Part shown: piece by piece, positions 1 to 37,480 of the stretch
How the letters are laid out: each line of letters begins with the position of its first letter
How positions within the stretch are numbered: the first letter of the stretch is position 1
Assembly (NCBI GenBank): GCA_030425905.1
Contig: JAUHZT010000001.1
Span: forward strand, 17,572 to 81,571
Direction of reading: 5' to 3'
From: Gammaproteobacteria bacterium
GTDB taxonomy: Bacteria > Pseudomonadota > Gammaproteobacteria > Steroidobacterales > Woeseiaceae
DNA length: 64,000 nucleotides
Position numbers and translations under genes: made by a program
The notes under the pieces: generated by a model
The model's database searches: none
The model's input: the letters and a program-made list of their open reading frames with translations, nothing else
Told to the model about the DNA's origin: nothing

Positions 1-228
1 GTTCAGGGATAACTCGGCCTCCAATTGCTCGATACGATCCACCCGATGCACACGCAAGATTGCCTGGGGATGGTGTCTTAAGAATTCGGCCGCACCTCGT
101 ACGGGGCGACCCTCAGTCGTGAAGACATCAAGGCGCAACCGCTCGGTGGGTACATCGGCGTATGCCGACGAGAGAGCCGCTACAGCAATCAGTGCAACCA
201 GTACGGTATGCTGTCGAAACTGCATCAT
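1..228 (-). CDS. PFL_4709-like (TIGR03757/DUF1525-type) ICE periplasmic protein, copy A; N-terminal 76 codons only, 3' end lies left of the window
   Basis: Reverse translation from ATGATG at 228 gives MMQFRQHTVLVALIAVAALSSAYADVPTERLRLDVFTTEG...RVHRVDRIEQLEAELSLN. It is open to position 1 and colinear with the full copy at 4186-4650. Confidence 0.7.
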   Translation of the reverse strand, partial: MMQFRQHTVLVALIAVAALSSAYADVPTERLRLDVFTTEGRPVRGAAEFLRHHPQAILRVHRVDRIEQLEAELSLN

Positions 229-324
229 GTCTGCCTTTGTCTGACGGCCTTTGATGCTGAGTCGGCGCGGGCAAGATTGACAGGCTTAACCCTTGCGAGG
301 CGTGAGGGCGTTTCGCAGCAAGCG
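1..324. repeat. Left copy of a diverged ~324-bp direct repeat (pairs with 4423-4746)
   Basis: Colinear, indel-free alignment at constant offset 4422. Hand count gives about 25 mismatches in the 228 coding bp, only 1 in the first 60 bp. Similarity continues ~95 bp upstream of the start codon and then stops. Confidence 0.9.
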
Positions 325-646
325 ACAGCTTGTCGCACTCGCTGGTTTACTTTGATATGTCGATTAGATCCCTAGCGCTATCCAATTTCGAACGGGTTAG
401 CCCAAGTGCGCGATTATGCTGGGCTCGTCAGCGCCTCTCGCTGGCTACGTGATACGCTTAACTTCATAGTAGCCCGCACACGACACAGTTGGAAAATAGG
501 TGATAGCCGACAACCGTCCGGCGATCCCGACCTGATTCGTTAACTGCGACACTTTTTTGCCGGTCATTACTAGATTCGATGAGCGGCGATTCTAGTCTAA
601 GCGAGACTTTGACCGCGCAAACGACTTGACTGCTAATCAAGTAATC

Positions 647-1369
647 CTAGTTTTCGAGCCGCCATTCGTCTAGCTTGCCTGCTATGAGTAACTCAACTTC
701 GGATAGGAACGCGAGATTATCGCCAGACAGCCAGAAGCTAAATTGGTCTTTCCAATCAGTGTTTCTTCGAAACCGGCATTGCGTGAAATATTGCGATTCA
801 TCGCTTTGGCGTCCAGGCTCATGATGACATGTACCTCGGATATAGTTCATGTCGGCCGGTACCGGTGAATCCGACGTAGGCCGTCGATCAAGGAGATAGA
901 AACCCGAATTTATGTGTGGCTTCGGATCGCAATAGAGGTAATACCTATAGTATCCTGTAACCGACTCTCTATCGTCCGCAATGCACGCAGTTGATCTGTA
1001 TCCAGTCATCTCCCAGAACTCCCGCCGCCGTTGTAATTCTCTTGCATCAGGCTTCCACTTGCCGTGCACGTCTTCGTCGTAAACCTGTACGACTACAATA
1101 AAATCATGACTTATCCCATAGAGGCCGTCGTCAAACCCGGGAATAGCGTTAGCAAGCTCCGCGCCGGTTAGCTCAAACGAAAATTCCATCGAGTTAATAT
1201 GGGTCGCACCAGAAGACGAGTCGCGGACACCCGGTTCGGGAGAGTATTCGTCGGGTATCAAGTATTCGCTGCGATAATGCGAACCACTATCGTCATTGCC
1301 TTGGAAGCAGCCATACGCGCAAGACCAGAAGATTACAGTCGATATCGCGAGGCTAGTTATCCTTGTCAC
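647..1369 (-). CDS. Hypothetical Cys-rich secreted protein or lipoprotein (240 aa), third gene of the cassette
   Basis: Long ORF with a 17-nt overlap on the upstream gene stop. Hydrophobic N-terminus ends ...VIFWSCAYGC (possible lipobox). Several further Cys. No family recognised. Visibly more AT-rich than the ICE backbone. Confidence 0.6.
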   Translation of the reverse strand: MTRITSLAISTVIFWSCAYGCFQGNDDSGSHYRSEYLIPDEYSPEPGVRDSSSGATHINSMEFSFELTGAELANAIPGFDDGLYGISHDFIVVVQVYDEDVHGKWKPDARELQRRREFWEMTGYRSTACIADDRESVTGYYRYYLYCDPKPHINSGFYLLDRRPTSDSPVPADMNYIRGTCHHEPGRQSDESQYFTQCRFRRNTDWKDQFSFWLSGDNLAFLSEVELLIAGKLDEWRLEN

Positions 1370-3098
1370 AACTTGGGCACCAATATCGTCCTGTTAGTAC
1401 CACCTCCCATCTGGCTCCGCTCCGTGGAGTTCCGCCGAAAGTATCTGGCGGCAGCCCAATATTTCCAAACACAGTGTGATGATAATCAGCAATCTGACGG
1501 TGCCCCAACTTTCCAATTGTAAAGGGGCCACCTTGATCTACTTCATCATTTACGGCATCCCGGTGCCTGCGCATGATCTGTACACCTACACCGTTCAAAC
1601 TATTGGGAACACCATGATCCGCGGCAAATCGCTCGTAGCGTCGATTCGCCATACAGCCAAGCGCCCACTCGTCATTTACAACATCTAATCCCAGTGGTCC
1701 TAACGGATCATACGAAACGTCCAACCTATCTTGCCAAAACGATCGGCGGGCCGCCGGGCTGCCCTGTAGGCTTATTTGTTGCTGAGCACTTGTTATTGAG
1801 AAATCATTTCCTGTTGGTGCATTAACTTTTGGCTCCCTGAATCCGTCGGCGCCAAGTACCGCATTTATCCCCGCTTCAATCTCGGAAAGCTCGCAATCTC
1901 GAACAATTTGAAGTTCGCGCTTTGGATCGTAGCCCGACTGCGACGGGTCACAATATACTCCGAGCGCCTCGCACAATACGTCGAGTACAACAGTGACTCC
2001 TGGCAAAGCGCCAGGTGAGTCCTTTGGTGTTGACCAAGGCGGTTGGACTTCCGGACCGCCGATTTCCACATCAAGTACGTCCTTTAGAACAATTAGGATC
2101 TTCTCGATAGCTGCAGCTACTTGCACATTTCCTTTTGTCGGACCAATGTCGTCCAATTCTTGGCTTAGTGAGTATGCTTCGGGGGAGATATTCGGATTCA
2201 ACACATCAATCGTATCGTTGACTTCATAGTAGATCTGAATTGTCGCAAAACCAACATCAAACCATCGCCAAATTCCAAACTCATCATAAGCATAACCCGG
2301 AGAAACGACTAGAACATACACTACGTACCACCCGGCAGTCGTTATCGTCTGCGTCGTAATGGCATTATCGAAGAACGCAGGGTCATTCAAGCCAGAGACC
2401 GTATCAGCTATAAAGTCGACTACGTCAGCCGAGATGCGTATGGCGTTCTGTGGGCTATTGCCTTGCTGTGAATATGTGCTCCAGATCGCGAAATCGTCAA
2501 TCGATTGCATACCTGTTAGAAAGACGTCTTGGGCGAAATCAAGAGTAGCGTCGCCCACCAGCACCTCACCCTGAAGCAAAGGTGCTTGCCTCGCGCTGAG
2601 GAGTTGCGCACCTGATGGTGATTCAAAAACAGTGAAGTTCCCTCCTCCAGATCCGCGAAGAATGAAGTCATCTACGAGTTGCTCATCGGGAAAAGGTGCT
2701 ATTACAGCGATATCCTGCACGCCGTCCGAGTCGAAGTCGCCACTCGTAATAATGTGAACAGCATCATTTGGTGCCGCCCCGGTTGGATCGACAACAATGG
2801 TATGCGTATCCGCCTCTTGACACCAAAGCGAATTGTCCGGCGCAAAATAGACACAATACTCTTCACTATAGTCGTAAATGCCACTTGTTCGAGTCAGAGT
2901 TACAGAACCACCCAGGGGACCGCCGCTAAACGTGGTACCACTGTTCTTCTCGATCAGCCTTGTGAACGTATATGTGCCCGGCGGCGACCAAGTCAGAGTG
3001 AAGGTTCCCGACGATTGCGTTGGACCGGAAATTGACGCTGAGGCATTTCCCGCCAAGAAGATGAATGCAACAAGCATTACTCGGAAAGAGGCACTCAT
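1353..3098 (-). CDS. Hypothetical large secreted protein (~581 aa) with one FG-GAP-like loop, second gene of the cassette
   Basis: ATG at 3098 makes an ATGA overlap with the stop of the 3095-3724 gene. N-terminus MSASFRVMLVAFIFLAGNASA looks like a signal peptide. ITSGDFDSDGVQDIAVIAP resembles an FG-GAP/Ca-binding loop. The C-terminal half is unrecognised and ends RYWCPSCDKDN. Confidence 0.7.
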   Translation of the reverse strand: MSASFRVMLVAFIFLAGNASASISGPTQSSGTFTLTWSPPGTYTFTRLIEKNSGTTFSGGPLGGSVTLTRTSGIYDYSEEYCVYFAPDNSLWCQEADTHTIVVDPTGAAPNDAVHIITSGDFDSDGVQDIAVIAPFPDEQLVDDFILRGSGGGNFTVFESPSGAQLLSARQAPLLQGEVLVGDATLDFAQDVFLTGMQSIDDFAIWSTYSQQGNSPQNAIRISADVVDFIADTVSGLNDPAFFDNAITTQTITTAGWYVVYVLVVSPGYAYDEFGIWRWFDVGFATIQIYYEVNDTIDVLNPNISPEAYSLSQELDDIGPTKGNVQVAAAIEKILIVLKDVLDVEIGGPEVQPPWSTPKDSPGALPGVTVVLDVLCEALGVYCDPSQSGYDPKRELQIVRDCELSEIEAGINAVLGADGFREPKVNAPTGNDFSITSAQQQISLQGSPAARRSFWQDRLDVSYDPLGPLGLDVVNDEWALGCMANRRYERFAADHGVPNSLNGVGVQIMRRHRDAVNDEVDQGGPFTIGKLGHRQIADYHHTVFGNIGLPPDTFGGTPRSGARWEVVLTGRYWCPSCDKDN

Positions 3099-3724
3099 TG
3101 ATTCCTGCCTCGCCCTTGTGTTGATGCCCGCCATTGGTCCATGATTACGGCATCGACAACTGCCATACTTTCCTCCACTACTTCAGAACTAAATCGTACC
3201 GCAGCGTCGTGCCTAAGGTCGTCACATTTCAATTTAGCAAGATCAAAATTAGTGGCGTAGTCGGGGGCACTTCGGATACAAGCGCTATATCTGTTAAGCG
3301 CAGCTGCTATGCCTTTTTCGTCCCTTGCGCGACCGTTGGCGACATCATTTTCGTAGGCGAGTCGTTGGGCCTCTCTTTGCGAATACCTCGTAGCCGGTCG
3401 CGGTCTGTTTCTGGTCCTTTCAAGCTGTGCGATAGGATCCCGCAGTTCACGTCGCTCATATAACTCCCGAATTCTCTCGTTAAACACTTCCAATCGATTG
3501 CCCAAAAATTTCGTCGCTTGTCTATACTCGGCCTGACACCGTTGATTTGCCTCCCCCATAGAAGATCGCAATTCCTGCTCCTTGGCAAGGCAGCTCACGT
3601 ATTGGTTTGGCGCATCATTAGCTAACTGCACTTCCCGAAGCACCGCAGTTTCATTGGCAAAAGAGATTCCTGGGGGCATCGCGAGAAGCAACGCAACTGT
3701 GCATATACTCAAGATTCGTTTCAT
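3095..3724 (-). CDS. Hypothetical secreted helical protein (209 aa) with two C-x17-C pairs, first gene of the cassette
   Basis: Signal peptide MKRILSICTVALLLAMPPGISFA. Charged, helical-looking sequence. Two Cys pairs with identical 17-residue spacing (CLAKEQ...NQRC and CIRSAP...KLKC), weakly reminiscent of DUF1311/LprI-type periplasmic proteins. Confidence 0.65.
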   Translation of the reverse strand: MKRILSICTVALLLAMPPGISFANETAVLREVQLANDAPNQYVSCLAKEQELRSSMGEANQRCQAEYRQATKFLGNRLEVFNERIRELYERRELRDPIAQLERTRNRPRPATRYSQREAQRLAYENDVANGRARDEKGIAAALNRYSACIRSAPDYATNFDLAKLKCDDLRHDAAVRFSSEVVEESMAVVDAVIMDQWRASTQGRGRNQ

Positions 3725-4185
3725 TACAAAGTTCCATTTTCCAACTGATTTTTCTTTGAAAATTGTTCGATTTAACCGTCTTAGTTCTACAAATATTTAC
3801 TGCACCTGAGCAGCGTTCTCGTCTTTTAGGACGGAAACAACTGAATGTCAACGCCTGTTAAGAAAGACGTCCTGGGCATGGTTGGGTGTTTGTCTGCACG
3901 TACATTGCGCATTGACTGACAAGGACCCGTTGGTTGATTCGATTCTGGTGACGTAATGTCTTGAGTGGACAGCTCCGAGTATCTAGTGACAAACTTTGAG
4001 TGAGGTTTCGACATTGCACTCAAACTACGAACACCGCAGTCGGAAAAGCAATCCCACGGGCTGCCAGGTGAGACAAGCAAAGGTCACGTCTACCGTTTTG
4101 TTGACAATCTCGTCGGTCGATATCTCGCCAGCGGGCGATGTACTGATCCACGCCGCAACAGACAGCGCTGCGAGGCCAATCCAGA

Positions 4186-4650
4186 TCATGGTGACCTGCG
4201 GTCTAGCAAGCTTTGATCGAGTTTCAGCGCTGCGGCCAAGTCGGTCAGGCCGTAGATCACACGTTCTTGGTCGATGACGATCGCAGGCACACGCTTGATG
4301 CCGAGTTGCAGGGCGAGTGCCAGCGACTTGGCCGTTTGCTGCAATTCGTCCTGGCGTTCACTCGACTGGTTTTGCAGTCGCCGGAGCGCCTGCTGCTCGG
4401 CTTGGTCGGGATCGACAGAAAGGTTCAGGGATAACTCGGCCTCCAATTGCGCGATACGATCCACCCGATGCACACGCAAGATTGCTTTGGGATGGTGTCT
4501 TAAGAATTCTGCTTCACCTTGTACGGGGCTATCCTCGGTCGTGAAAACATCAAGTCGCAGCCGCTCGACGGATACATCGGCGTGTGCCGACGAGAGAACC
4601 GCTACAGCGATCACTGCAACCCGTACAGTGTGTGGTCGAAACTGCATCAT
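4186..4650 (-). CDS. PFL_4709-like (TIGR03757/DUF1525-type) ICE periplasmic protein, copy B, full length (154 aa)
   Basis: Start ATGATG at 4650 chosen by alignment with copy A. Signal peptide MMQFRPHTVRVAVIAVAVLSSAHA. C-terminal ...VPAIVIDQERVIYGLTDLAAAL is typical of this thioredoxin-like ICE family. The position after traC fits the family gene order. Confidence 0.75.
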   Translation of the reverse strand: MMQFRPHTVRVAVIAVAVLSSAHADVSVERLRLDVFTTEDSPVQGEAEFLRHHPKAILRVHRVDRIAQLEAELSLNLSVDPDQAEQQALRRLQNQSSERQDELQQTAKSLALALQLGIKRVPAIVIDQERVIYGLTDLAAALKLDQSLLDRRSP

Positions 4651-4746
4651 GTCTGCTGTTGTCAGAGGGCTCCTGATGCTGAGACGCCGCGAGCAAGAAT
4701 GACAGGCGTAACCCTTGCCAGGCGTGACGGCGTTTGGCAAGGCGCG
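4423..4746. repeat. Right copy of the diverged ~324-bp direct repeat (pairs with 1-324)
   Basis: See the left copy. Covers the 5' half of the 4186-4650 gene plus ~95 bp of its leader. Confidence 0.9.
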
Positions 4747-4996
4747 AATGTGGCGAAGCCCGGAAAAATATTCGCGGACCCATGCCCGGCCGTGCACTGC
4801 GCCTCTATCAAGACGATATTGCGCTGCGTCGAGTCAGCACTGCTAAAGACTGAGTCAAGATGTCAGCGGTCGACGTGTATTTTTGCTCAATGGTTGTTTC
4901 TGGCGCCACATGTGGTCAGCGACTCGTTCCGCTGCCGCCAGACGATCAGGACTGACCCGAGTCTGCGGATTTTGAGTTACTTATCGAGTGTATTGT

Positions 4997-5380
4997 TTAG
5001 GCGGCGCATGAATTGTTCTCAATCCAAGTTGCCAACGTATCTTCGTCCACTTCGCCGGCCGCGACAGCGCGGATCATGACGACAGCCTCCGCTTCATTGG
5101 CAGCAAACTCTACGCCGTTACATATCAGAAAGACGTCGATCGCATTTAGTGCTACTCGCTTGTTGCCGTCAGCAAAGCAGTGATTTCGCGCGAAACCAAA
5201 TCCATACGCGGCTGCCAGTTGGTGAATTGATGCCCCGGGATTGTAGGCTAACAAGTGTCGGGGTCGCGCGAGTGTCGATTGCAGCGGGCCATCATTGACA
5301 GGCCCGCGCAATCCCCCATCTTCGGCGATGGTCAGTTCCAGGAAATATTCGATCTCGCGTTGATTGAGCCAGACAGGCAA
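4997..5380 (-). CDS. doc: Doc (death-on-curing) Fic-family toxin
   Basis: 127 aa with Fic/Doc motif HCFADGNKRVA. Directly abuts the antitoxin gene (5380/5381). Confidence 0.9.
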   Translation of the reverse strand: MPVWLNQREIEYFLELTIAEDGGLRGPVNDGPLQSTLARPRHLLAYNPGASIHQLAAAYGFGFARNHCFADGNKRVALNAIDVFLICNGVEFAANEAEAVVMIRAVAAGEVDEDTLATWIENNSCAA

Positions 5381-5611
5381 TTACTTGGCGAGCTCGCGGT
5401 ATGCATTGCGATACTTTCGACGCGATCGATCAATAGCTTCTACTTTGCGTGCAAAATCATCGTCGTAGGCAGTAATGAAAACGCCATTCTCCCGATGCTC
5501 AATGGCAACGCAATCGCCAAGACCAGCCGCAAGATGCTGTAAATCTGCTGGCGACAAGGTAACTGCTGCAGAGTTACCGTGCTTGCTGATTTTCTTGACT
5601 GCGGTCGTCAT
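5381..5611 (-). CDS. AbrB/MazE/SpoVT-type antitoxin partner of Doc
   Basis: 76 aa. The KISKHGNSAAVTLSPADLQHL swapped-hairpin-like N-terminus is followed by a C-terminal tail. Lies immediately upstream of doc. Confidence 0.8.
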   Translation of the reverse strand: MTTAVKKISKHGNSAAVTLSPADLQHLAAGLGDCVAIEHRENGVFITAYDDDFARKVEAIDRSRRKYRNAYRELAK

Positions 5612-5626
5612 AGTGAGCCCTCCATG

Positions 5627-5671
5627 TGTACGTACAGATGTACTAATGGAGTATATACCTATGTACGTACA
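5627..5671 (-). promoter_or_regulatory. Two identical 10-bp palindromes TGTACGTACA (each followed by GA) upstream of the antitoxin gene; probable TA autoregulatory operators
   Basis: Exact copies at 5627-5636 and 5662-5671, 35 bp apart, starting 16 bp upstream of the antitoxin ATG at 5611. Confidence 0.5.
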
Positions 5672-5802
5672 GACAGCAAAGCCAAGGTGCGAATCAGGTC
5701 ACAGTACTGACAAACGACGAAAATATCGAAAAACTCTTGAAACTCAATAGGATACCAGGCTAACGGCCGGAAATAACCCGGTGCAGCTCTGCAAGATGCC
5801 TT

Positions 5803-8493
5803 TCAGCCATCGCCGTCATTCCTACGCACAATGCGTTCAGCCTGGATGTAGGCAGCCTCAAGCTCGGAGCACTGGTTTTCGCGCATGATGGCCGTGCGCT
5901 CGGCTTTTTCGTGCTTTTCGGTCATGGCGAGCGCGAGCGACAATGGTGGTAGCACGTTGCGAAACAGAGCCTCGATGCTGTCGGCGATGACCACGCCTTC
6001 GGTGTAGTTGCCGGGTTCCTTGCGGGCTGACAGCAACAGGCGTCGCTGCTCGTCGGTCAGGTCTTTGAAGCGTCCGATCTGCTCCACTTCCTCCTTGGGC
6101 ATGACCAGACACAGCCACCACTCCATCATGTTGAGCATGCGGCGACTGGCATCGGGAAAATCCTCGAGGTTCTGGGTTGCGATCCAGAACCAGGCACCGA
6201 GCTTTCGCCACATCTTGGTGATCTTGACGACGTAGCGCGCGAGCAACGGATTGGTTGTGATGATATGCCCTTCGTCCGTGACCACCAGCGTCGGCCGGTG
6301 GTCGTGCTGTTGTGCTTCGACCAGCGCATTGATGTGGCTCATCATGGAGAGATAGGCGACGGTCAACTGGTCCTCGTAGCCTTCGCGAGCCAGCAGACCC
6401 ATGTCGAGGATGGTCACATCGACCAACGGCCACGGTCTGCCGAGGCGGTTGAAGAACTTCCCGGCAAGCCCGGAGCAAAAGAGCGCCATGCCGTCGGCCA
6501 TTTCAGTTGCGCGGTGCCGGCGGACCTCGGCGAGGGCTTCCTGCGTGCCGAGTTCCCGCAGTGCGGCGACCACGTCCGCGGTGAGTACTTGCTCCCGGCC
6601 TGCAATGCGGGTGCGCTCTGCGGCCAGGTAGATGGCGTTTCGAATCAGCAAACGGTCCGCGCGGGTCATGCGTGCATCTTCGCGTTCGTCGCCACCCGTG
6701 ATCATGATGCGCGCAGCGATTTCCATTTCCCCGAGGAAGTCACGCCCGCCCTCCTCGTCGGTTTCTTCTTCGGATTCCCGATCCTGCGGTGATTCCAGAT
6801 CGAACGACGTACCGACGCCCGGCCGCAAGCACAGGGCATCGGCGAAGGGCGGCAGGCTCACGTCGGCATCCGGGTTCAGCGTGATCGAATTGACCGAGAG
6901 TCCATGGTGGCGAAGATGCTGGCCCAGAAGACCGAAGGAGTTACCAGCCTCAATGATGAACACGCGTGGCCGGTAGACGGCCAGCATCTGCTGCAGAAGG
7001 TAGACGAGCAGTGCCGACTTGCCGGCGCCGGTGGGCCCCAGGATCAGCGTGTGAGCGTTCTTTTTGCGGTCAGCGACATTGAGCGGATCGAACACCAGGG
7101 GCTCGGCGCCGCGATTGAAAAACACCAGACCCGGATGGCCGGTGCCGCGCGAGCGGCCATAGAGCGGCAGGAGATTGGCCGCGTGCTGGGAGAACACCAG
7201 CCGGGAGCGTCGGCGGCGCTTGTCGAGCGCCGGCTCGTAGGCCATGGGCAGGTTACGCACGTAGCTGTCCTGTTGCAGCAGATCAACCTCGTGCCGAATC
7301 GGCTGCAGTCCGTTCGACAACAGCAGGGCCTGGGCCTGATTGAGTTGGGCACGCAAATCGATCGCGTCGGCGCCACGCAGGTAAAAGCCGATCTCGAGCG
7401 GATACAGCTTATTTCCGGCGGCCATCTCGCGTTCCACGGCCTCGGCATCTTCCCGGACAAGCGTGGCTTCGGCCGCATCGCCAACCGCGGCGCGACGCAT
7501 TTGAGCAATGTGATTGCGCAGGACGTGCTGCGCCCTGACGGTCAGGGTCAGGACCATGACGCTGTACTCGGGTAAACGGTCAAAAAGCGCGTAGACCTGG
7601 TCGCCGATGTGACGCTCGGCCGTAAAATGCCCGATGTCCGGGGCGCGCCGCAGGCTTTGTACGCTGAGCATGGTGTGCGCCAGCTCGTCAAACCACCAGA
7701 TGCCGTCTTTCGAGCGGGGCGTCGACAGCGTGAGTTGCTCAGCGAACTCGTAGCCGAAAGGCATGGCGGTATCGCCGGGGTACGGCGCGAGTTCGGCGAT
7801 GTCCCGGCAGCCGCCATTGACGATCCGTGGCCCCGGGTTGAACCAGCGCAGGAGCCAGGTGTAGAGCCCTTCGCCGGTGCCGCGATGCGCCTGCACGCCG
7901 GCCGCGGCCAGTGCTTCGGTCCATCGTGCGGCCACGTCATTCAACTCGTCCTCGCTGTGTCTGAGCGCGGTGCCGCGATGGGTCGTGCTTTGACGTCGAT
8001 AGAGTGTTGCGCGGACGATGCGTCGTTTGCCCCGCCACGCGGTGCCGGTAACGCCCTTGTCCGTGAACAGTCCACCCTGACGGCTGATGCGGGCCAGGTG
8101 ATCGCTCATCATTGCTGCGTGGTGTTGTGTGAAACCGCTGCCCTGCAGGCGCTGGTCCGGGTAGTTCCTGAGCGTATCGGCAAACGGTTCCAGGCGGGGT
8201 TCGTCCTGGACATAGATCTGCAACACCCAGGGATCCGGGTCCTCCTCGGGGATGGCATCATTGAGGGCCACCTGCAGGCTGTCGCGCAGTTCGGCCATGA
8301 ACGCGGGGCTGCGCGCTTCGGTGCCGACGGGCTCCAGGCGAAACAAGGCACCGACACTGATGCCGTCTTCGAGCAGGAACGACTTCGTGTCCGGACTGTA
8401 CTCGACCCAGGGCAACAGGTCGGTGAAGGATCGTGGCTCCGTATAGAGTCGCTTGGCCGCCGAGTGCTCGACCGCCTGGCCGCTGTGGGTCAC
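5803..8493 (-). CDS. traC: Conjugative transfer ATPase, TraC/VirB4-like (PFL_4706 / TIGR03744 type)
   Basis: 896 aa. Walker A LILGPTGAGKS and Walker B-like LVVTDEGH. ATGA overlap with the upstream lipoprotein gene at 8490-8493. Confidence 0.92.
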   Translation of the reverse strand: MTHSGQAVEHSAAKRLYTEPRSFTDLLPWVEYSPDTKSFLLEDGISVGALFRLEPVGTEARSPAFMAELRDSLQVALNDAIPEEDPDPWVLQIYVQDEPRLEPFADTLRNYPDQRLQGSGFTQHHAAMMSDHLARISRQGGLFTDKGVTGTAWRGKRRIVRATLYRRQSTTHRGTALRHSEDELNDVAARWTEALAAAGVQAHRGTGEGLYTWLLRWFNPGPRIVNGGCRDIAELAPYPGDTAMPFGYEFAEQLTLSTPRSKDGIWWFDELAHTMLSVQSLRRAPDIGHFTAERHIGDQVYALFDRLPEYSVMVLTLTVRAQHVLRNHIAQMRRAAVGDAAEATLVREDAEAVEREMAAGNKLYPLEIGFYLRGADAIDLRAQLNQAQALLLSNGLQPIRHEVDLLQQDSYVRNLPMAYEPALDKRRRRSRLVFSQHAANLLPLYGRSRGTGHPGLVFFNRGAEPLVFDPLNVADRKKNAHTLILGPTGAGKSALLVYLLQQMLAVYRPRVFIIEAGNSFGLLGQHLRHHGLSVNSITLNPDADVSLPPFADALCLRPGVGTSFDLESPQDRESEEETDEEGGRDFLGEMEIAARIMITGGDEREDARMTRADRLLIRNAIYLAAERTRIAGREQVLTADVVAALRELGTQEALAEVRRHRATEMADGMALFCSGLAGKFFNRLGRPWPLVDVTILDMGLLAREGYEDQLTVAYLSMMSHINALVEAQQHDHRPTLVVTDEGHIITTNPLLARYVVKITKMWRKLGAWFWIATQNLEDFPDASRRMLNMMEWWLCLVMPKEEVEQIGRFKDLTDEQRRLLLSARKEPGNYTEGVVIADSIEALFRNVLPPLSLALAMTEKHEKAERTAIMRENQCSELEAAYIQAERIVRRNDGDG

Positions 8494-8918
8494 TGGTCCG
8501 CCGCGCCGCTGGACGTTCGCTCGGTGGACAGTACCTCACCGGGGAGTGCGTACTCGACGCGCTCGTACAGCGAAAACGTTGTCGCGTACCCCGGCACGGG
8601 CACGCGCGCGCTGCCAGCCAGGTGCGGATAGACGTACAGCACAAGAGTCGGGTTCGGCAATCGCGGAAAGTGCAGGTTCAGCTCGTTGTACGCATCGCGC
8701 GTGTAGCCAGCGAGATCCATGTCGTCATCCTGGATCGGACGCGTGGCCACATGCCGGCGCAGGGACTCCGTAAGCTGCAGGCCGATGTCCGAGAAATGCC
8801 GCGTGTAAATCGCCTGCATCGTCGGACCGTGCGTCGGCAGAATTCGGTCCTTGTCCGAGGCGCAGCCGACAAGACTAGTCCAGAGGACGAGCAGCAGAAA
8901 AAGGTGGGGGCGTGTCAT
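8490..8918 (-). CDS. Conjugative transfer region lipoprotein (TIGR03751 type)
   Basis: Internal start MTRPHLFLLLVLWTSLVGCASD gives a clean lipobox. 142 aa. Position fits the family gene order. Confidence 0.8.
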   Translation of the reverse strand: MTRPHLFLLLVLWTSLVGCASDKDRILPTHGPTMQAIYTRHFSDIGLQLTESLRRHVATRPIQDDDMDLAGYTRDAYNELNLHFPRLPNPTLVLYVYPHLAGSARVPVPGYATTFSLYERVEYALPGEVLSTERTSSGAADQ

Positions 8919-10221
8919 GTTTAAGTCTCCGTCCGTTCGGGTCGCGATCGATACTGAGTTCCCGGTCGACGTGGATCGCGACTTCACCGCCAGCCGGGAC
9001 GAACACAGCATCGAAGTTCTGCGCCTGGCGCTCGGCGAGCCAGGCGGTGATCTCACTGCCGGCATCGGCCAGGGTCTTGCCGAGCACGTAGTCGCCCTTG
9101 TTGCCGGCAACGTGGCTGCTGATCGCACCGCTGTCGCGCAATACGGTCGTGGTCTGCGATGCGGCCGCGGCTTCGGCGGCCGCCTCCATCGCCGTGATAC
9201 CAATGCGCTCGCTTAGGTAAGCGGTGGCGTTTGATTTGCGTTCGCCCGAGATGCAGGGGATGCCGTGGGCATCCGAGATCCAGCCCAGCGGCCGGTTACC
9301 ATCACCGCCCCGGTTGTCGTTGTCGTCGGTCGACAGGGTGCGAATGGTGCCGTCGTCGAAAACGAAGGTTACGGATTCCAGGCGACCCGTGATGCAAGAC
9401 AGCGTCCAGTCACCGATCGCCGTGCCGCTCCAGATCATGCCGTGGATACCCGGAACGCTGAGGCCGTTGGCGGCCAAATTGTCGCGGCCGGTAATGAGCT
9501 TGAACGGCATCGGGTCGCGGACTTCACCGCGCACAGGAACCCGGCCAATGAGTGCCGTCATCGAGGTCGCGCCCATCAGGGTGGCATTGCGTGGGACGGT
9601 GTACACAGGAATGGGTTCCGCGACCGTCTCGATGTCACGGCGACCCAGGTTTCGTGCGGGATCAACCTGTTCTCGCAGGGCCTCACTGAGTCCGGGCGCG
9701 GCGCGGTCCAGTGGCTCGATCCAGACCAACTCGGTCGATACCCCGGTCGTCGGCAAACCCAGCCCGACCGGTATGTCCGCACTATCGGCCGCGAGCCGGG
9801 CCGGGTCCAGCGCATCACTCAGTGCCGCAACGCGTTGCTCAAGACGTGCCAGCGACGCCCGATCCTTCGCCGTGGCCGCGTCCGATTGCAAAGCACCAAG
9901 TACCTCGTCGATGCGCGCCTCGAATCGCTCCTGGATATTTGCTTCGCGCGCCGTCAGGGTGTTCTTGTCGACCCGGAGCCGGTCGTTCGCCTTACGCAGG
10001 CGTTCAAGTTCGGCGGTCATGGCCGCAACGTTGGCTGTGAGGGTCTCGATCGTGTCCGCCGGCGTATCGGCATCGGGACGCGCGGCGATCGGGACCGCGT
10101 CAAGGCTGCCGGCCGCCTCATGCTCGTCATTGCAAGCGCGCATCAGGACCAACAGCAACATGAGCACGACCACGCCAGTTAAGATTGGCAGCAACCGATT
10201 CTGTCGCGTGATCAGCATCAG
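8875..10221 (-). CDS. ICE protein, PFL_4705 (TIGR03752) type, N-terminal TM plus coiled coil
   Basis: Start MLITRQNRLLPILTGVVVLMLLLVL at 10221 (ATGA overlap with the upstream stop). Coiled-coil region LTANVAAMTAELERLRKANDRL. Conserved position. Confidence 0.8.
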   Translation of the reverse strand: MMLITRQNRLLPILTGVVVLMLLLVLMRACNDEHEAAGSLDAVPIAARPDADTPADTIETLTANVAAMTAELERLRKANDRLRVDKNTLTAREANIQERFEARIDEVLGALQSDAATAKDRASLARLEQRVAALSDALDPARLAADSADIPVGLGLPTTGVSTELVWIEPLDRAAPGLSEALREQVDPARNLGRRDIETVAEPIPVYTVPRNATLMGATSMTALIGRVPVRGEVRDPMPFKLITGRDNLAANGLSVPGIHGMIWSGTAIGDWTLSCITGRLESVTFVFDDGTIRTLSTDDNDNRGGDGNRPLGWISDAHGIPCISGERKSNATAYLSERIGITAMEAAAEAAAASQTTTVLRDSGAISSHVAGNKGDYVLGKTLADAGSEITAWLAERQAQNFDAVFVPAGGEVAIHVDRELSIDRDPNGRRLKHDTPPPFSAARPLD

Positions 10222-11006
10222 GGTAAGACCGAGGCGGCAAAGGGTTGTGCCGAGACCAGATACACGACCGTGGTGTCGGCCTCGTCGCCGGCCGGCAACA
10301 AACGGGCGTGTTGAAACGTGGCGCTGAGCCACTGACCGCGCAGCGCCCTTGGATCGAGGACCTGAGGCTCGGTGCTGCGATTGGTGAGCTTGACGGCCGT
10401 CACATAGTGCGAGCCGGCGCGCCAGGCAATTAACGGCCTGGCCTCGACGGCGCCGCCACGCACGAGCGACACGGCATCTTGCTGCAGCGGCACTCGCACC
10501 ACGCCGGATAAGGCTGAGACCAATCGTGCCGGAGCGTACAATTGCTGTGCTGCAAAACGTGTCATTTGAACGTAGTCGTACTGCACCGGGCCCGTTGGCG
10601 TTGTGACGCCATCCTCACCGATTGCCGGCGTGTCCAGCGTGATACGAATCGGCGCGTTGTCGTTGGGTGCGAAGCTGGCCTCAAGATCGATCAGGACCAT
10701 GCGGCCGCTGTCGAGCTCGCGGATAGCGACACGTGTCGTCGCAAACGGTGCCGCCGCACGCCAGTAAACCGTGCCGTTCACGGTTTGTGTGCGCAGGCTT
10801 GAATCCAATGACTTCGGCACACCGACGCTGACCGCGCCGGCAAAATGCACCAGCTGCTCCTCGCCGACCATGAGTTGAACCGCAATCGGCACTTTTTGCC
10901 AAGGGATGTGCCGGGCCGCTGTTTCCTGGGCCTGAATGCCCGTAGCGAGACAGGAGAGGAGCAACAGCGACCCGGCACAAAGCCATGTGATGGCGTGACG
11001 ACCCAT
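10218..11006 (-). CDS. ICE periplasmic protein, PFL_4704 (TIGR03749) type
   Basis: Start MGRHAITWLCAGSLLLLSCLATGIQA (signal peptide) at 11006, with a TAATG 1-nt overlap on the upstream gene. Confidence 0.75.
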   Translation of the reverse strand: MGRHAITWLCAGSLLLLSCLATGIQAQETAARHIPWQKVPIAVQLMVGEEQLVHFAGAVSVGVPKSLDSSLRTQTVNGTVYWRAAAPFATTRVAIRELDSGRMVLIDLEASFAPNDNAPIRITLDTPAIGEDGVTTPTGPVQYDYVQMTRFAAQQLYAPARLVSALSGVVRVPLQQDAVSLVRGGAVEARPLIAWRAGSHYVTAVKLTNRSTEPQVLDPRALRGQWLSATFQHARLLPAGDEADTTVVYLVSAQPFAASVLP

Positions 11007-11674
11007 TATGAGGAGTCCTCGCGTGAGGCTGATCGTGAGTGTTCCGGTTGGGAGTCTGCTATCAGACGTTCGGGGCCAGCGCCGGCAAATCCGTCGAGCG
11101 CCAGGCCCCAGGGGTTGGATTCCGGATCGATGGCCAGGCGCACAACACGCAACGGATAGCGGATCCGTGTTTTCTTGATGGTCATGCCTTTCACGGATTC
11201 CTGCAGTTCGAGATCCAACCACACGACCCAGGCGTCGGCGCCCAGTACCTCGACGCGCTCTGCGCTGTAGGCAACGCCCGGCAGGGCCTGCAGACTGCGC
11301 GTGCGGTGTGCGAGTTCACCGCGTTTGCCGCGATTGTCCATGTCGATAACCAGGGCATTGCGGTAGGCGTCGGTCAGGTACGGCGCGATGCGAAAAATCG
11401 CCTTGCCGTAATCTTCGGCGCCGTTGTTCGGCCAGCGGTTCAATTGCTGAAAGATGTAGTAGGCGAAACTGTAAACATTGGGCGACGGCACCTCGTCGAG
11501 AGCCAACCGGGATCCGGAGCGAAGATCGGGCGGAATATGCACGGTGATCGTCGACGGCATGCGCATCCAGCCGATCCACAGCGCCAGAATGACCACCAGT
11601 TGCAGGCCGATGACGGCCCATAGCGAGCGCAGGTGGCTGCGTACATTGTCGATCTCGTAGCGATAGCGTTGCAT
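11006..11674 (-). CDS. ICE membrane protein, PFL_4703 (TIGR03746/DUF2895) type
   Basis: 222 aa with a single N-terminal TM (LWAVIGLQLVVILALWIGW). Conserved position. Confidence 0.8.
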   Translation of the reverse strand: MQRYRYEIDNVRSHLRSLWAVIGLQLVVILALWIGWMRMPSTITVHIPPDLRSGSRLALDEVPSPNVYSFAYYIFQQLNRWPNNGAEDYGKAIFRIAPYLTDAYRNALVIDMDNRGKRGELAHRTRSLQALPGVAYSAERVEVLGADAWVVWLDLELQESVKGMTIKKTRIRYPLRVVRLAIDPESNPWGLALDGFAGAGPERLIADSQPEHSRSASREDSS

Positions 11675-11683
11675 CGGGCGACT

Positions 11684-12043
11684 CTAGCCGGATCGTTGAC
11701 GGCCGATTGACCAGTCGCCGTCCCGTCGGATAAACGGCGCGGGCTTCAGGCGTGTCCTGGCGAACGCAATCGCCAGTTTCTGCTGGTAGTAGCCATCGGG
11801 CCGACCGCGCTTGATGCGCTGAAAGAGGCTGCCCATATCAATGACGGTTGCCACAATGGCAACACCCGCAAGGCCGAGGCCCATTGCGGCGGCGCCCAGC
11901 ACCCAGGCGATCAGCACACTGACGGGCAGCCATATGAGAACTGCGAGACCCGTAATAATGCCAAGTTCGGACGATGAGCAGCCACGAAAAATTGGCGGCT
12001 CGTCGTTCAACCGTTCGGCGAGCAGTCGTCCGGTGGCCGTCAT
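11684..12043 (-). CDS. Conjugative transfer region membrane protein (TIGR03750 type)
   Basis: Start MTATGRLLAERLNDEPPIFRG at 12043 (ATGA overlap). Two TM segments. Confidence 0.75.
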   Translation of the reverse strand: MTATGRLLAERLNDEPPIFRGCSSSELGIITGLAVLIWLPVSVLIAWVLGAAAMGLGLAGVAIVATVIDMGSLFQRIKRGRPDGYYQQKLAIAFARTRLKPAPFIRRDGDWSIGRQRSG

Positions 12044-12384
12044 ACGATGATACCGGCGGCTTCGGTGAGCAGGTAGCTGGCGAATATCAGCACGATGGCA
12101 CCGACAATCCCGAGCACGCCGACCTCGGCCCACTCGGCCTTACCCTGGCGCGCTTCGTTGAACTTGGCAAAGGCCAGGTAGGCGACCCACAGGAAGCCCA
12201 GCACGGCAATGGCCAAGCCAAGTACAATGCCACCGTCCTTGATATAGCCCTCAATCAGGCCGATCCAGTCGCCGTCGGCCGGTGCCGTGCTCGGCGCCAC
12301 GGGTGTCGGCAGATTGGCGTTCGCGAGGCTCAGCCAGCCGAGACTCAACGCTCCGCCGAACACTAGTTTCCAGATAGTCTTCAT
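12040..12384 (-). CDS. ICE membrane protein, PFL_4702 (TIGR03745) type, pilin-like
   Basis: Start MKTIWKLVFGGALSLGWLSLANA (signal peptide), followed by two hydrophobic helices. Confidence 0.75.
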   Translation of the reverse strand: MKTIWKLVFGGALSLGWLSLANANLPTPVAPSTAPADGDWIGLIEGYIKDGGIVLGLAIAVLGFLWVAYLAFAKFNEARQGKAEWAEVGVLGIVGAIVLIFASYLLTEAAGIIV

Positions 12385-12456
12385 CAGTACAACTCCAATG
12401 TGTGCGAGCACGCTCGCGTACCCTATGACCCGGCCCATTGCCGGGTACCCAAGTAA

Positions 12457-12687
12457 TCAGCGCAGGTAGAAGCCGAGCACCATGACGACGATGCTGGCGC
12501 GAAGCGCACCCCAGGCCAGATCAAACAGACTGGCGCTGCCCTCTTGCCAGGCCCGAAACGTGCCAAAGGTTACCCACAGCGCCCAGACAAAGATCAGCAC
12601 CATGACCATCGAGGCGATGCCGATGAGGACCGCATTGGGGCTAATCCCGGCAGCGGACTGAAACACGGCCTGCTGTGTCGCATTCAC
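12457..12687 (-). CDS. ICE small membrane protein, PFL_4701 (TIGR03758/DUF3262) type
   Basis: 76 aa with two TM segments. Conserved position. Confidence 0.7.
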   Translation of the reverse strand: MNATQQAVFQSAAGISPNAVLIGIASMVMVLIFVWALWVTFGTFRAWQEGSASLFDLAWGALRASIVVMVLGFYLR

Positions 12688-12692
12688 GAGTT

Positions 12693-12989
12693 TCAGCGCC
12701 GATAGTCGCCGCGCAGCGGCTTGACGGCGCGGGGTTCGTTGTGCGGTGCATCGATGTGTTCCTGGATGCCGCTGCGCACACGCTCGAGATCCTGACGCAG
12801 CCAGTCGTAGCGAAAACGAATTCGCGCATCTCCATCAGCGGCTTGCTCGGCACGATCGATGAGCGTTTGCAATTCCTCGAGTTCATGGACGATGCCCGCA
12901 AGGGCCTTGCGTTCGACATCCCTATCGGCATAGGCCGATGCGCAAGTGAGGGAAATCCAGGTGAATCCGATTAGGAAAAGTGATCGCAT
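12693..12989 (-). CDS. RAQPRD-family ICE protein
   Basis: Internal start MRSLFLIGFTWISLTCASAYA (signal peptide), 98 aa. C-terminal ...HNEPRAVKPLRGDYRR sits where the RAQPRD motif occurs. Confidence 0.7.
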   Translation of the reverse strand: MRSLFLIGFTWISLTCASAYADRDVERKALAGIVHELEELQTLIDRAEQAADGDARIRFRYDWLRQDLERVRSGIQEHIDAPHNEPRAVKPLRGDYRR

Positions 12990-13535
12990 GATCTTGCCGC
13001 TTTGTTGAAACTGGCGGCGATGATCCGCGATTGCATTGCGGGCGGCGATAGATAAGTAAATCCGGTGGGCGTGGGATATTCCGCAAATCTGCCTGTGGCC
13101 ACGAATCTTTTGCCTACCGTGCTGCGACAGGCGCGGCCAAACTTGCGCAATGAAACCGATGCAAATAGAGATACAGTCGCTCGGAGTAAATCGCCATCTT
13201 GTTGCGGTAGGTGTACGCGCTTTCGCAAAGGACGCCAATAGGACATTGAAAGTGCGCTTTCCGCACCCGCAGTCGGCGGCGATAGAGGAGCTCCAGGAGT
13301 TGGCTAGGCATGAAGTCTTCCGCTACCTCGACCCTGCCTGAGTCTTGTCTGCAAGCGGTGTGTGAGTGGCGCCTTTTCGGTCTGGTAGAGTTGTATCTGT
13401 CGCCGGCGGAATAATTCGTTGGGTTGGTCGGTACAACTAACACTTAACACTTGGGCGGAGGTTCCAGCGATAAGCAAGGGGAAGAATCGGCCATTACTTG
13501 CCGCTGTCGGCTTCCGCTATTGAAGCAACAGCCAC

Positions 13536-34061: not shown

Positions 34062-34385
34062 TCAACCCGTGATTTCAATGGCAGACTTGATGTCGCTGAC
34101 GTAGATCCATCCTGCGGATGATTGCCCCGTCTTACCGTGTTCGCGAATAATCGCCACCGCCTCGGCGGTCTGGGTTTCGGTTTCGCAGACCAGCTCAAGC
34201 TTCACTTCGGTCACCACTTTCTGACCAATCTCCACAGAGTAGTGTTGCTCTTTGCTGTCCAATGATTTGAGCAATCCTTGCACGTCAATGACTGTCAGGT
34301 TCTTAAATCCCGCATTGGTGAGCTCACTGACGACATCCGCCACACGACTTCGATGTATGTAGGTTTTGACTTCACTCAGGCTCAC
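34062..34385 (-). CDS. P-II (GlnB)-like small protein coupled to czcA, copy 1
   Basis: GTG at 34385 forms a GTGA overlap with the czcA stop. (V)SLSEVKTYIHRSRVADVVSEL...LTVIDVQG... follows a P-II-like beta-alpha-beta pattern. Clear paralogue of 48378-48701. Confidence 0.75.
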   Translation of the reverse strand: MSLSEVKTYIHRSRVADVVSELTNAGFKNLTVIDVQGLLKSLDSKEQHYSVEIGQKVVTEVKLELVCETETQTAEAVAIIREHGKTGQSSAGWIYVSDIKSAIEITG

Positions 34386-37300: not shown

Positions 37301-37480
37301 TGCCTCGGCCGCAAGTCCGGGCGACTCTGTGTAGATATTGACCTGGATCGGTGTGAGATCGGGGAACGCATCGATGGGTACCGTATTGACGGCACGCCAA
37401 CCCAAAAATGCAATCAGTCCAAACGCGACCAGCGTTAGCAGCTTGTAGCGCAGCGAGATATCGACTAGAGCGTTGAGCAT
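34382..37480 (-). CDS. czcA: Heavy-metal efflux RND pump, CzcA/CusA family, copy 1
   Basis: 1032 aa with a 12-TM RND layout. AGGAGG lies 6 nt upstream of the ATG. Paralogue of 48837-51950. Confidence 0.93.
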   Translation of the reverse strand: MLNALVDISLRYKLLTLVAFGLIAFLGWRAVNTVPIDAFPDLTPIQVNIYTESPGLAAEAVEQLLTFPVESGMAGLPGVQQIRSVSLFGLSYVSVYFDDDVDIYFARRLVMERLQEVGERIPEGYGTPEMGPNTSALGQVFWYTIERTDEAMKSATSDMDLRTAQDWSVRLVLRTVPGVDDVMSWGGQERQYQVQIDPRQLIAYDLDYRTVLEAIEVNNGQVGGQYINLGPEQYLVRGLGLVRNTDDIGDIVLKAVDGVPVRMRDIAEIKEAPALRFGAVTRDGQEVVLGMALARIGENAANVVDAVKEKIATASTILPQSMQLRPVYDRTDLVDKAVNTAVTALVQGALLVAVVLFLFLGELRSAVVVIAALPMAMLIAFIFMDAVGLSANLMSLAGLAIGIGMVVDGAVVITENSFRIMAERLAEGRKVNRVEAVLAAAREVANPIAFAIIIIIVVFLPLFSLEGLEGKLFKPMAFNISFAMAGSLLLTLTLIPVLAALLLKPHGDRDTRLVSWLKRGYVPLLDWALANKRKLIGSAAALLVASLAIFPFLGKEFMPTMQEGSIVWRIASIPSTSLEESIALSKRVSAALSEFPEVTTSVAMIGRAEKGEIADVNSMEVYTELLPYDDWPTDRDFDDLREDMEARLQEVAPASVVAFTQPIQMRVEELISGVRATLAVKVYGPDLSGLDRLSQQIKSVISEVPGVEDLSLEANLGKPQVRIEVDRSQLSRYGLNAEDVLTLVRNGIGNEAVSTLIDGVRRFDITAGLHPDAKVDVETIGNIPLRTDDGAIVLLSKVADIDVTEGFSFVRREQLQRYAVIQMDVVGRDVDGFVEAVEQRLDAELDIPAGYWFEWGGAFENQQRALTRLSLIVPVTIFFIFLLLYTAFNSAKFATMIIANVPFATIGGIFALAISGQYVSVPSAVGFIAVFGVAMLNGVVLVSYMNELRAKGLALSDAVRQACVLRLRPVLMTACTTILAIIPLLLSTGVGAETQRPLASVVIGGLFSSTFLTLVLLPAIYEWVESRKEGAS

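Follow-up and report, generated by a model that had tools for sequence, protein, structure and literature searches.

We have analysed three adjacent genes, called A, B and C here, in a 64,000-nucleotide stretch of DNA from a Woeseiaceae gammaproteobacterium (GenBank assembly GCA_030425905.1, contig JAUHZT010000001.1, positions 17,572 to 81,571 of the forward strand). This stretch is referred to as the window and is numbered from its first letter. The genes lie on the minus strand, inside the transfer operon of an integrative and conjugative element (ICE). The evidence points with good probability to a horizontally acquired polymorphic toxin-immunity module, made of new protein families and carried by the ICE as cargo. 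B ends in a domain that is also found at the tip of Rhs and Tc-like toxins, C belongs to a family of envelope proteins encoded next to that domain, and A is an exported helical protein. Three "hypothetical proteins" could on this basis be annotated as a predicted toxin, immunity protein and accessory protein.

Three coupled genes encode exported proteins

The open reading frames (ORFs) of the trio occupy positions 3095-3724 (gene A, 209 aa), 1353-3134 (gene B, 593 aa from the first ATG) and 647-1369 (gene C, 240 aa, GTG start), all on the minus strand. As read off the sequence, A and B share an ATGA overlap at 3095-3098, and B and C overlap by 17 nt at 1353-1369. This agrees with a first reading made from the letters of the window (the sequence-only reading), which had described three translationally coupled genes with these overlaps. 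Among the homologous loci, L002, L003, L004 and L005 have the same ATGA junction, and the first two of these also have the 17-nt overlap (loci are designated by L numbers and single proteins by P numbers). Since the database copy of B has 581 aa, we favoured the ATGA-coupled start at 3098, which gives a coding sequence of 1353-3098 including the stop codon. Each of the three proteins is conserved in at least six independent loci (24-28% identity for A, 47-51% for B and 39-42% for C), and we therefore regard A, B and C as real genes.

All three N-termini are signal-peptide-like, as had been proposed, with a basic residue followed by a hydrophobic core and with predicted cleavage at SFA/N in A and ASA/S in B. 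The earlier observations of two C-x17-C pairs in A, of an FG-GAP-like Asp loop in B and of a probable lipoprotein in C also stood up, and so did its statement that no family could be named for the trio, apart from one FG-GAP repeat. That repeat was the only match in scans of A, B and C against Pfam, NCBIfam and PADLOC (E ≤1), besides a sub-threshold Pect-lyase match of B in Pfam. RHS_repeat, TEN_YD-shell, PAAR, VgrG and SpvB had no match in B, and no trio protein matched the TIGR0374x-0376x ICE families of NCBIfam. The PADLOC scan (at the same E ≤1) linked none of the three to anti-phage defence, and a PDB sequence search with whole B returned no match.

Homologues of the trio are rare in sequence collections. 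Word-seeded searches found three homologues of B among 5.8 billion clusters, whereas those with A and C returned only themselves; relatives of A and C were recovered by synteny and local hidden Markov model (HMM) searches. Among 185,579 species-representative genomes, B was encoded in a single one, a Woeseiaceae metagenome-assembled genome. A profile built from four B sequences gave 636 matches in 1.84 billion representative proteins, about 10 of which were full length. The remaining matches formed two groups, one sharing the C-terminal part of B (81 proteins) and the other its N-terminal module (35 proteins).

The C-terminal domain of B is found at the tip of unrelated toxins

The 81 proteins of the first group, counted among the best 150 of the 636 matches, cover profile positions ~427-581 and are 130 to 2593 aa long. 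After the shared C-terminal (CT) domain, 80 of these proteins have only 0-8 further residues, and one has 25. Its carriers include DUF6531+RHS proteins, SpvB+FG-GAP+TcdB_mid+RHS proteins (TcB/TcC-like fusions) and an LCCL protein. In the Rhs carriers the domain starts 30-100 aa past the core-end motif PxxxxDPxGL, a motif that is absent from B; in other carriers it is preceded by a glycine-rich GGKFxxGA stretch. Such an extreme C-terminal placement on unrelated N-terminal architectures supported that the C-terminus of B is the C-terminal domain of a polymorphic toxin, within the framework described for these systems (PMC3482391). The domain is widespread: its representatives number in the hundreds and occur on Rhs, Tc-like and stand-alone carriers.

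In B, the CT domain comprises residues 427-581 (positions 1356-1820, minus strand), about 155 aa. It carries the motifs FWxSR…GDP, LMxAH, DYHHxVF, GLPxxTFGGTP and WCxxCD, the last of which lies at the very end of B as WCPSCD (WCPSCDKDN). Across 32 diverse members, Arg458, His512, His540 and Gly556 (window numbering) are invariant. AlphaFold2 (AF2) modelled the domain as all-alpha, with seven helices, at a predicted local distance difference test score (pLDDT) of 92.1 and a predicted template modelling score (pTM) of 0.87. The sequence-only reading had treated the last ~300 aa of B as one region that it could not assign. No family match was found there, but the region has two parts, a middle one (~300-426) and the toxin domain (427-581). 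Since the domain is not hydrophobic (maximum 19-aa Kyte-Doolittle, KD, value of 0.73), it would act as an enzyme or a tight binder rather than as a pore-former.

The structure comparison suggested in the earlier reading for the C-terminal part was thus provided with a confident model, but with no neighbour: Foldseek searches against PDB and BFVD gave a best E of ~1 and template modelling (TM) scores of ≤0.35. None of the 32 members matched Pfam-A 2025. A PDB sequence search with the CT profile gave nothing significant and one weak match (9p3h_A, see below), and a profile of the "CDPxG" CT subfamily had no match in PDB. As far as the model goes, the family and its fold are undescribed so far. 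Lysozyme-like, PLA2-like, HD-domain, PAP2 and colicin-type folds were considered for the domain and were unsupported by Foldseek; the HD-domain rows, at E ~7, were disregarded.

Gene C encodes a predicted immunity lipoprotein

Gene C (647-1369, minus strand) encodes a predicted lipoprotein of 240 aa that would be the cognate immunity protein of B. Cys21 occupies the position of the lipobox Cys in the homologous proteins (LSC, QGC, HGC). The family keeps Trp119, Pro164, Pro171, Cys181, Cys198 and Trp236 invariant and has a conserved C-terminal helix; its profile matched nothing in Pfam or in PDB sequences.

We have scanned metagenomes for the toxin tip with 8 related CT sequences, which gave 65 loci, and have then run local HMM searches on these. 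Homologues of C were found directly downstream of CT-bearing ORFs with unrelated N-termini, frequently overlapping the stop codon, as in L007-9 (the Rhs protein P0025, 1519 aa), L057 (1259 aa) and L063 (1230 aa). When the HMM search had been iterated three times, the C family comprised 35 ORFs in 34 loci, all downstream of a CT-bearing ORF. The only one not adjacent to it was a second, full-length copy in L004, where (11937-13316) a shortened copy of 176 aa, with no signal peptide, is followed by a full one (242 aa), the two proteins being nearly identical. Tandem duplication of this type is often found at immunity loci. For the close CT subfamily, a C homologue was present in 25 of the 30 loci with room downstream.

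Every member of the C family has a signal peptide, a lipobox or a membrane anchor at its N-terminus. At L007 (7117-7947) the public gene call uses an internal GTG start and loses the signal peptide; from the upstream ATG the protein begins MNKYNLFTIFAIFWLIAFSRMVNC…, a normal exported N-terminus.

A diverged CT subfamily, mostly from soil and peat contigs (loci within L031-L074), is followed in 21 loci by a polytopic membrane protein of ~150-165 aa instead (e.g., L049 684-1178 and L070 5128-5622). From their position and predicted topology, these would be a second, putative immunity family for the same toxin domain.

Taken with the architecture of B, the linkage between the CT domain and C makes it likely that B and C are a toxin-immunity pair, the toxicity of B being what we infer from it. 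As both kinds of partner are located in the envelope, neutralisation would take place at its periplasmic side. The envelope location of all immunity partners also suggests that the toxin probably acts in the periplasm, with a periplasmic or membrane-face component as its probable target.

The N-terminal module of B carries shuffled C-termini and is preceded by an exported helper

B starts with a Sec-type signal peptide (residues 1-22, positions 3033-3098, minus strand, …AGNASA/SISGP) with a hydrophobic core of KD 3.16. The ISGPT motif past the cleavage site is kept in the homologues and in other B-type proteins. Residues ~23-105 (2784-3032) correspond to a fn3/Ig-like beta-sandwich with a conserved Cys82-Cys93 pair. 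The stretch 28-105 of the B profile occurs as 5-7 repeats in the Tc-like proteins P0048 and P0117, where Pfam assigns fn3 and ChitinaseA_N, and the AF2 model of whole B has beta strands at residues ~23-105, with low confidence. An FG-GAP-like beta region follows (residues ~110-300, positions 2199-2771) and includes the DFDSDGVQDIAV loop. Pfam FG-GAP (PF01839) matches it at E 4.8e-5 and 23.6 bits, above the cut-off of 22.1, at residues 129-150 of the 593-aa ORF; with one repeat detected, a full propeller is not demonstrated. The helical middle region (residues ~301-426, positions 1821-2198), which has conserved Cys376, Cys383 and Cys402 and is found in the close family only, may serve as a linker or in translocation.

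The second group of profile matches, 35 other proteins of ~500-700 aa, shares the N-terminal ~250 residues of B. This B-type module consists of a signal peptide, an ISGPT…FTLxW beta domain and FG-GAP-like repeats (FG-GAP or FG-GAP_3 matches). When 39 module-bearing proteins were compared, their last 150 aa fell into at least 12 unrelated clusters, and clustering by the middle region conflicted with clustering by the C-terminus. Both results supported that the module also carries shuffled C-termini. The notion that B-type proteins are mere FG-GAP propellers with no toxin logic was ruled out by these shuffled C-termini together with the three-gene layout.

Gene A (3095-3724, minus strand) encodes a 209-aa helical protein with a type I signal peptide (…ISFA/NE) and two C-x17-C helical-hairpin modules (Cys45/63 and Cys149/167). 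A homologue of A lies upstream of every full-length B homologue (L001-6, L010/11; HMM E 1e-70 to 1e-98). The counterpart in L012 is a 123-aa upstream ORF, ~98 aa from an internal Met, with C-x22-C spacing.

Outside the close family, six B-type loci, L012 among them, were looked at. In three of them (L075, L077 and L079) the B-type gene is preceded by a gene for an exported protein of 94-100 aa, with a signal peptide and a single C-x17-C, which is coupled to it by a 4-nt overlap in L079 and separated from it by 2 nt in L075 and L077. The third gene of these loci encodes a small membrane-anchored or multi-pass protein, and a small downstream membrane protein is duplicated in L078. No A-like gene accompanied the B-type gene in L080 and L081. 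The A family was found beside B-type N-termini only, and its HMM found nothing beside Rhs-borne CT domains. We have therefore assigned A to the N-terminal trafficking module rather than to the toxin tip. From this association, A may tentatively be viewed as a periplasmic chaperone or a release/delivery helper.

Taken together, the trio and its relatives add an unclassified toxin domain, two predicted immunity families (one of lipoproteins and one of polytopic membrane proteins) and a candidate delivery module with its helper.

A short motif of the CT domain resembles the effector Smlt3024

Three of the 32 CT members matched NF050128 (Smlt3024 family T4SS effector; T4SS, type IV secretion system) with a best E of 4.7e-7 and 15-29 bits; apart from this local motif, no NCBIfam model matched the domain. 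The CT profile also aligned with residues 17-71 of PDB 9p3h_A (E 0.013), a 444-aa "conserved hypothetical protein" for which a literature search found no paper naming 9P3H. The stretch that resembles both corresponds to the N-terminal helices of the domain, GNRxxFWxSR…GDP…ALxVVxN…G..AN.

Smlt3024 is an effector of the bacteria-killing T4SS of Stenotrophomonas maltophilia (PMC6759196). It slows the growth of Escherichia coli only if sent to the periplasm, by a mechanism that was unknown, and it is neutralised by the lipoprotein Smlt3025 (PMC6759196). The pair (X-Tfe/X-Tfi) thus resembles B and C in combining periplasmic action, inferred for B, with lipoprotein immunity. In Smlt3024, however, the shared domain is N-terminal and is followed by the XVIPCD signal for VirD4, whereas in B it is C-terminal and the protein is Sec-exported; the immunity gene lies upstream in the Smlt3024/Smlt3025 system and downstream of B here. 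XVIPCD had no match in the Pfam scan of B, although the presence of an XVIPCD model in that Pfam copy was unchecked. In sequence comparison, the C profile found neither 6PDK (the Smlt3025 immunity structure, of FrpD-like fold) nor FrpD. Membership of B in the Smlt3024 family was rejected on the lack of a full-length match and of a detected XVIPCD, the opposite domain order and the position of the immunity gene on the other side.

The similarity was taken as a common N-terminal helical motif and as a possible distant relationship of the CT domain to Smlt3024. If the link were true, it would bring more sequence diversity, and Arg458, His512 and His540 as candidate residues, to a mechanism open since 2019.

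Proposed mode of action

In the mechanism that we propose, B would be exported by Sec, and its fn3-like and FG-GAP-like N-terminal module would serve trafficking or receptor binding. The helical middle region would then be followed by the ~155-aa all-helical toxin domain, which, working as an enzyme or by tight binding and not by forming pores, would reach its envelope target from the periplasm. In the producer and its kin, the C lipoprotein would block this domain in that compartment, with A, a small periplasmic helical protein probably stapled by disulfides, as a chaperone or release/delivery helper. Carriers of the ICE would be immune, while ICE-free neighbours and segregants would be inhibited, which might give the element a competitive or retention advantage.

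Several observations weigh against this proposal. The Sec signal would place B in the periplasm of its own producer, leaving it with two outer membranes to cross, and the trio was found linked to no secretion system. The AF2 model of whole B, made from a 4-sequence alignment, was unusable (pLDDT 38), so the N-terminal and middle domains are assigned from sequence profiles alone. The CT model has no fold neighbour from which an activity could be named. The NF050128 matches cover only model positions 13-70 of 436 (~55 residues), far below the 800-bit cut-off, and the CT domain of the window itself had no match to this model at E ≤1. Similarity between A and the one-module proteins was weak (E ~5e-4 in a six-sequence search) and collinear with the first Cys pair of A, and their link leans on gene position, signal peptide and Cys spacing.

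Alternatively, B would never leave the cell that makes it. B and C would then be a self-directed envelope toxin-antitoxin pair that kills cells losing the ICE, with A modulating the stability of the complex. Such an addiction system is compatible with a B that has a Sec signal only and no linked outer-membrane secretion system, with an immunity protein in the same compartment, and with the classical phd/doc addiction pair that adjoins the cassette on the mobile element. It would not account for the fact that Rhs and Tc-like toxins, which pass from cell to cell, bear this CT domain, and a large fn3/FG-GAP module with shuffled C-termini would be pointless for an intracellular toxin. Moreover, lipoprotein immunity proteins are usually stable, at odds with the logic of antitoxin decay. 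We therefore consider self-directed addiction improbable.

A bolder form of the proposed intercellular mechanism would make the B module and its C-x17-C partner an unrecognised Sec-dependent delivery route, independent of the type V and type VI secretion systems (T5SS and T6SS) and of Rhs. Its warhead would found an all-helical fold directed at an envelope target, possibly with the mechanism of Smlt3024, and toxin pressure would be coupled to conjugative spread. Based on its position inside the T4SS operon, the cassette would, in this form, be switched on in transfer-competent cells. We hold this extended version to be on the unlikely side.

The trio moves as a unit between unrelated sites

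The sequence-only reading had asked whether the trio travels as a unit, and we have found it syntenic, in the order A-B-C, in L001-L006 and L010-L012, including marine metagenomes. In L001-3 and L006, a Woeseiaceae chromosome and matching TARA contigs, it lies by Rhs genes, upstream of rnr-rlmB-rpsF. In L004 it follows a FecI/FecR/TonB-receptor/PepSY_TM cluster. In L010 (1-10480) and L011 it is placed between genes for MobC, a MobA/VirD2-type relaxase and SNase on one side and VirD4, VirB11 and VirB10/TrbI on the other, in a mating-pair formation (MPF) T-type conjugative element that is unrelated to the ICE of the window. In L012 an integrase and an XRE regulator are upstream. The G+C content (GC) of the trio was below that of the flanks in every locus with substantial flanks. 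Such varied contexts and lower GC supported that the trio is a mobile cassette landing at various sites, including two unrelated conjugative elements.

These contexts bear on the role in conjugation that had been suggested earlier, namely a mating-pair adhesin or surface exclusion, to which entry exclusion or a remodelling of the envelope alongside T4SS expression may be added. In favour of such a role, the cassette reads in the same direction as the surrounding MPF-G genes and lies within their operon, between traC and a TIGR03757 gene; its homologue lies between relaxase genes and virD4-virB11-virB10 in L010/L011; and fn3 and FG-GAP domains are frequent in adhesins. However, no T4SS is near the trio in the Woeseiaceae chromosome, where Rhs genes and rnr flank it, or next to the FecIR/TonB-receptor cluster, and in all the other loci examined the homologous trios lie outside MPF-G elements. 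The C-terminal domain of B is a tip borne also by Rhs and Tc toxins, gene C follows this tip in any context, none of the trio proteins belongs to a TIGR037xx ICE family, and the neighbouring phd/doc pair marks the site as a collector of cargo. We strongly doubt a conjugative function, and what the evidence indicates is essentially the other option of the sequence-only reading, a periplasmic effector/inhibitor set. The trio in L010/L011 fits toxin-immunity cargo on mobile elements, and a looser link to transfer may exist.

That B is instead an anti-eukaryotic or non-toxic secreted protein (an adhesin or enzyme directed at polysaccharides or grazers, with A and C as maturation or anchoring factors) is most improbable, for although TcB/TcC-like CT carriers fall in a class whose best-known members are insecticidal toxins and the CT domain has no assignable activity, the one-to-one linkage of the CT domain with C, a C gene duplicated in tandem and the envelope targeting of all C homologues are a signature of self-protection against an antibacterial toxin, and the membrane-embedded second partner family of the diverged CT domain fits immunity better than maturation.

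Two side observations concern the surroundings of these loci. In L001/L002 (1-8539) several Rhs genes or gene fragments (DUF6531/RHS/TEN_YD-shell) lie immediately upstream of the trio, which gives the region the look of a toxin island. Genes for a TonB-dependent receptor and PepSY_TM adjoin the B-type gene at L004 (5142-9031) and at L080 (4543-5758); these neighbours may be a coincidence or hint at a receptor or uptake route.

Relation to other known systems

The organisation of the trio resembles that of polymorphic toxin systems (Zhang, Aravind et al. 2012, PMC3482391), and in particular of their signal-peptide-only class ("T2SS/general secretory", T2SS being the type II secretion system). 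Both have a trafficking N-terminus with a variable toxin tip, an adjacent downstream immunity gene that co-varies with the tip, C-terminal shuffling and residence on mobile elements. Unlike that class, the cassette has a dedicated upstream exported helper, which is unusual for it. The toxin domain, the immunity family, the fn3/FG-GAP module and the C-x17-C helper correspond to no family of Pfam-A 2025 beyond generic FG-GAP and fn3. Rhs and TcB/TcC toxins share the same CT domain and the same downstream immunity family with the trio, whereas B has neither RHS repeats nor the Rhs core-end motif, so that a different vehicle carries the same warhead.

Colicin M with Cmi and pesticin with Pim provide another comparison. 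These are soluble multidomain toxins with a C-terminal killing domain that acts in the periplasm of the target, and their immunity proteins are membrane-tethered and face the periplasm. Colicins have no signal peptide and are released by lysis proteins. B and C are of the same type in having a C-terminal toxin tip and a predicted immunity protein that is tethered and faces the periplasm, and differ from it by the signal peptide of B. Searches in Pfam, PDB sequences and Foldseek brought up nothing similar to the domains of colicin M or pesticin.

The gene order is that of the myxobacterial sitBAI cassettes (PMC5562445), which also run accessory-toxin-immunity, with overlapping cistrons and on mobile elements. 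Their accessory protein, which carries a type I signal sequence, lacks any known domain, and their toxin joins a conserved N-terminus to a C-terminus that is polymorphic. On Mx-alpha elements, sitBAI cassettes have been proposed to favour retention of the element (PMC5562445). SitA, however, is a lipoprotein that uses TraA/B outer-membrane exchange, with nuclease tips acting in the cytoplasm and a cytoplasmic SitI, whereas B has a type I signal peptide and its predicted immunity protein is periplasmic. Similarly, SitB is a predicted beta-barrel whereas the product of gene A is helical. No sequence relationship was found between sitBAI and the trio.

The ICE backbone and the insertion site

The minus strand of positions 1-12000 of the window is a transfer operon of the PFGI-1/ICEclc type (MPF-G), and the earlier placement of the cassette, co-directional with the T4SS genes and embedded among them, was confirmed. 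Upstream of the trio lie, all on the minus strand, a TIGR03752 gene (8875-10332), a TIGR03751 lipoprotein gene (8490-9203) and the gene of a TraC-like ATPase (5803-8493). The cassette was described as visibly more AT-rich than its surroundings, which is accurate: its GC is 0.50, with 0.47-0.52 at third codon positions (GC3), whereas traC, traD and the TIGR03752 gene have values of 0.63 and 0.73-0.78.

Two copies of a PFL_4709-like gene had been reported to flank the cassette, and both are real members of TIGR03757/DUF1525. Copy A (4186-4650, minus strand) is complete, with 154 aa (TIGR03757 E 2e-26, DUF1525 E 7e-26), its start codon having been set by alignment with copy B, and it forms the upstream boundary of the cargo. 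Copy B (1-228, minus strand) runs off the window after its first 76 visible codons. The two belong to a 300-nt direct repeat (1-300 and 4423-4722) with 87% DNA identity, which corresponds to the start of TIGR03757 and ~85 nt upstream of it. Over the 76 visible residues the proteins are 83% identical, with 13 non-synonymous and 8 synonymous codon changes. The repeat has the look of an old duplication, or of recombination between two different ICEs, rather than of a recent tandem duplication, and it suggests that recombination with another ICE, not simple insertion, brought in the cargo.

The leader between copy A and gene A (3725-4185, minus strand) has the length of 461 bp given for it earlier and is AT-rich (GC 0.48). 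A non-coding trailer of 327 bp (320-646, minus strand) separates gene C from the repeat that opens copy B. In neither was a sigma-70-like promoter or an intrinsic terminator found, scans of 1-6000 being at background, and an Rfam scan of 1-6000 gave no signal above background. As the cassette is co-directional with the transfer operon and no promoter or terminator consensus was seen in the leader, read-through expression of the trio with the T4SS genes is possible, judging from these sequence features. A blastn comparison of the leader and cassette flanks with the other trio loci showed no common non-coding boundaries and no DNA similarity, so that the ends of the cassette are not definable.

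Between traC and copy A there is also the phd/doc toxin-antitoxin pair (5381-5611 and 4997-5380, minus strand). Its Doc matches TIGR01550 (E 1e-15) and Fic/DOC, its antidote matches TIGR02609 (E 1e-12), and its GC is below that of the ICE backbone. The presence of this pair supported that the traC-TIGR03757 gap is a cargo hotspot, which suggests that elements of the PFGI-1/ICEclc type accept competition or addiction cargo there, inside the transfer operon.

Elsewhere in the window, a heavy-metal resistance block extends from 34382 to 58526 on the minus strand. It includes two CusA/CzcA-type resistance-nodulation-division (RND) pumps (34382-37480 and 48837-51950) and three heavy-metal P-type ATPases (39922-41808, 44066-46537 and the CopA-like 56304-58526).

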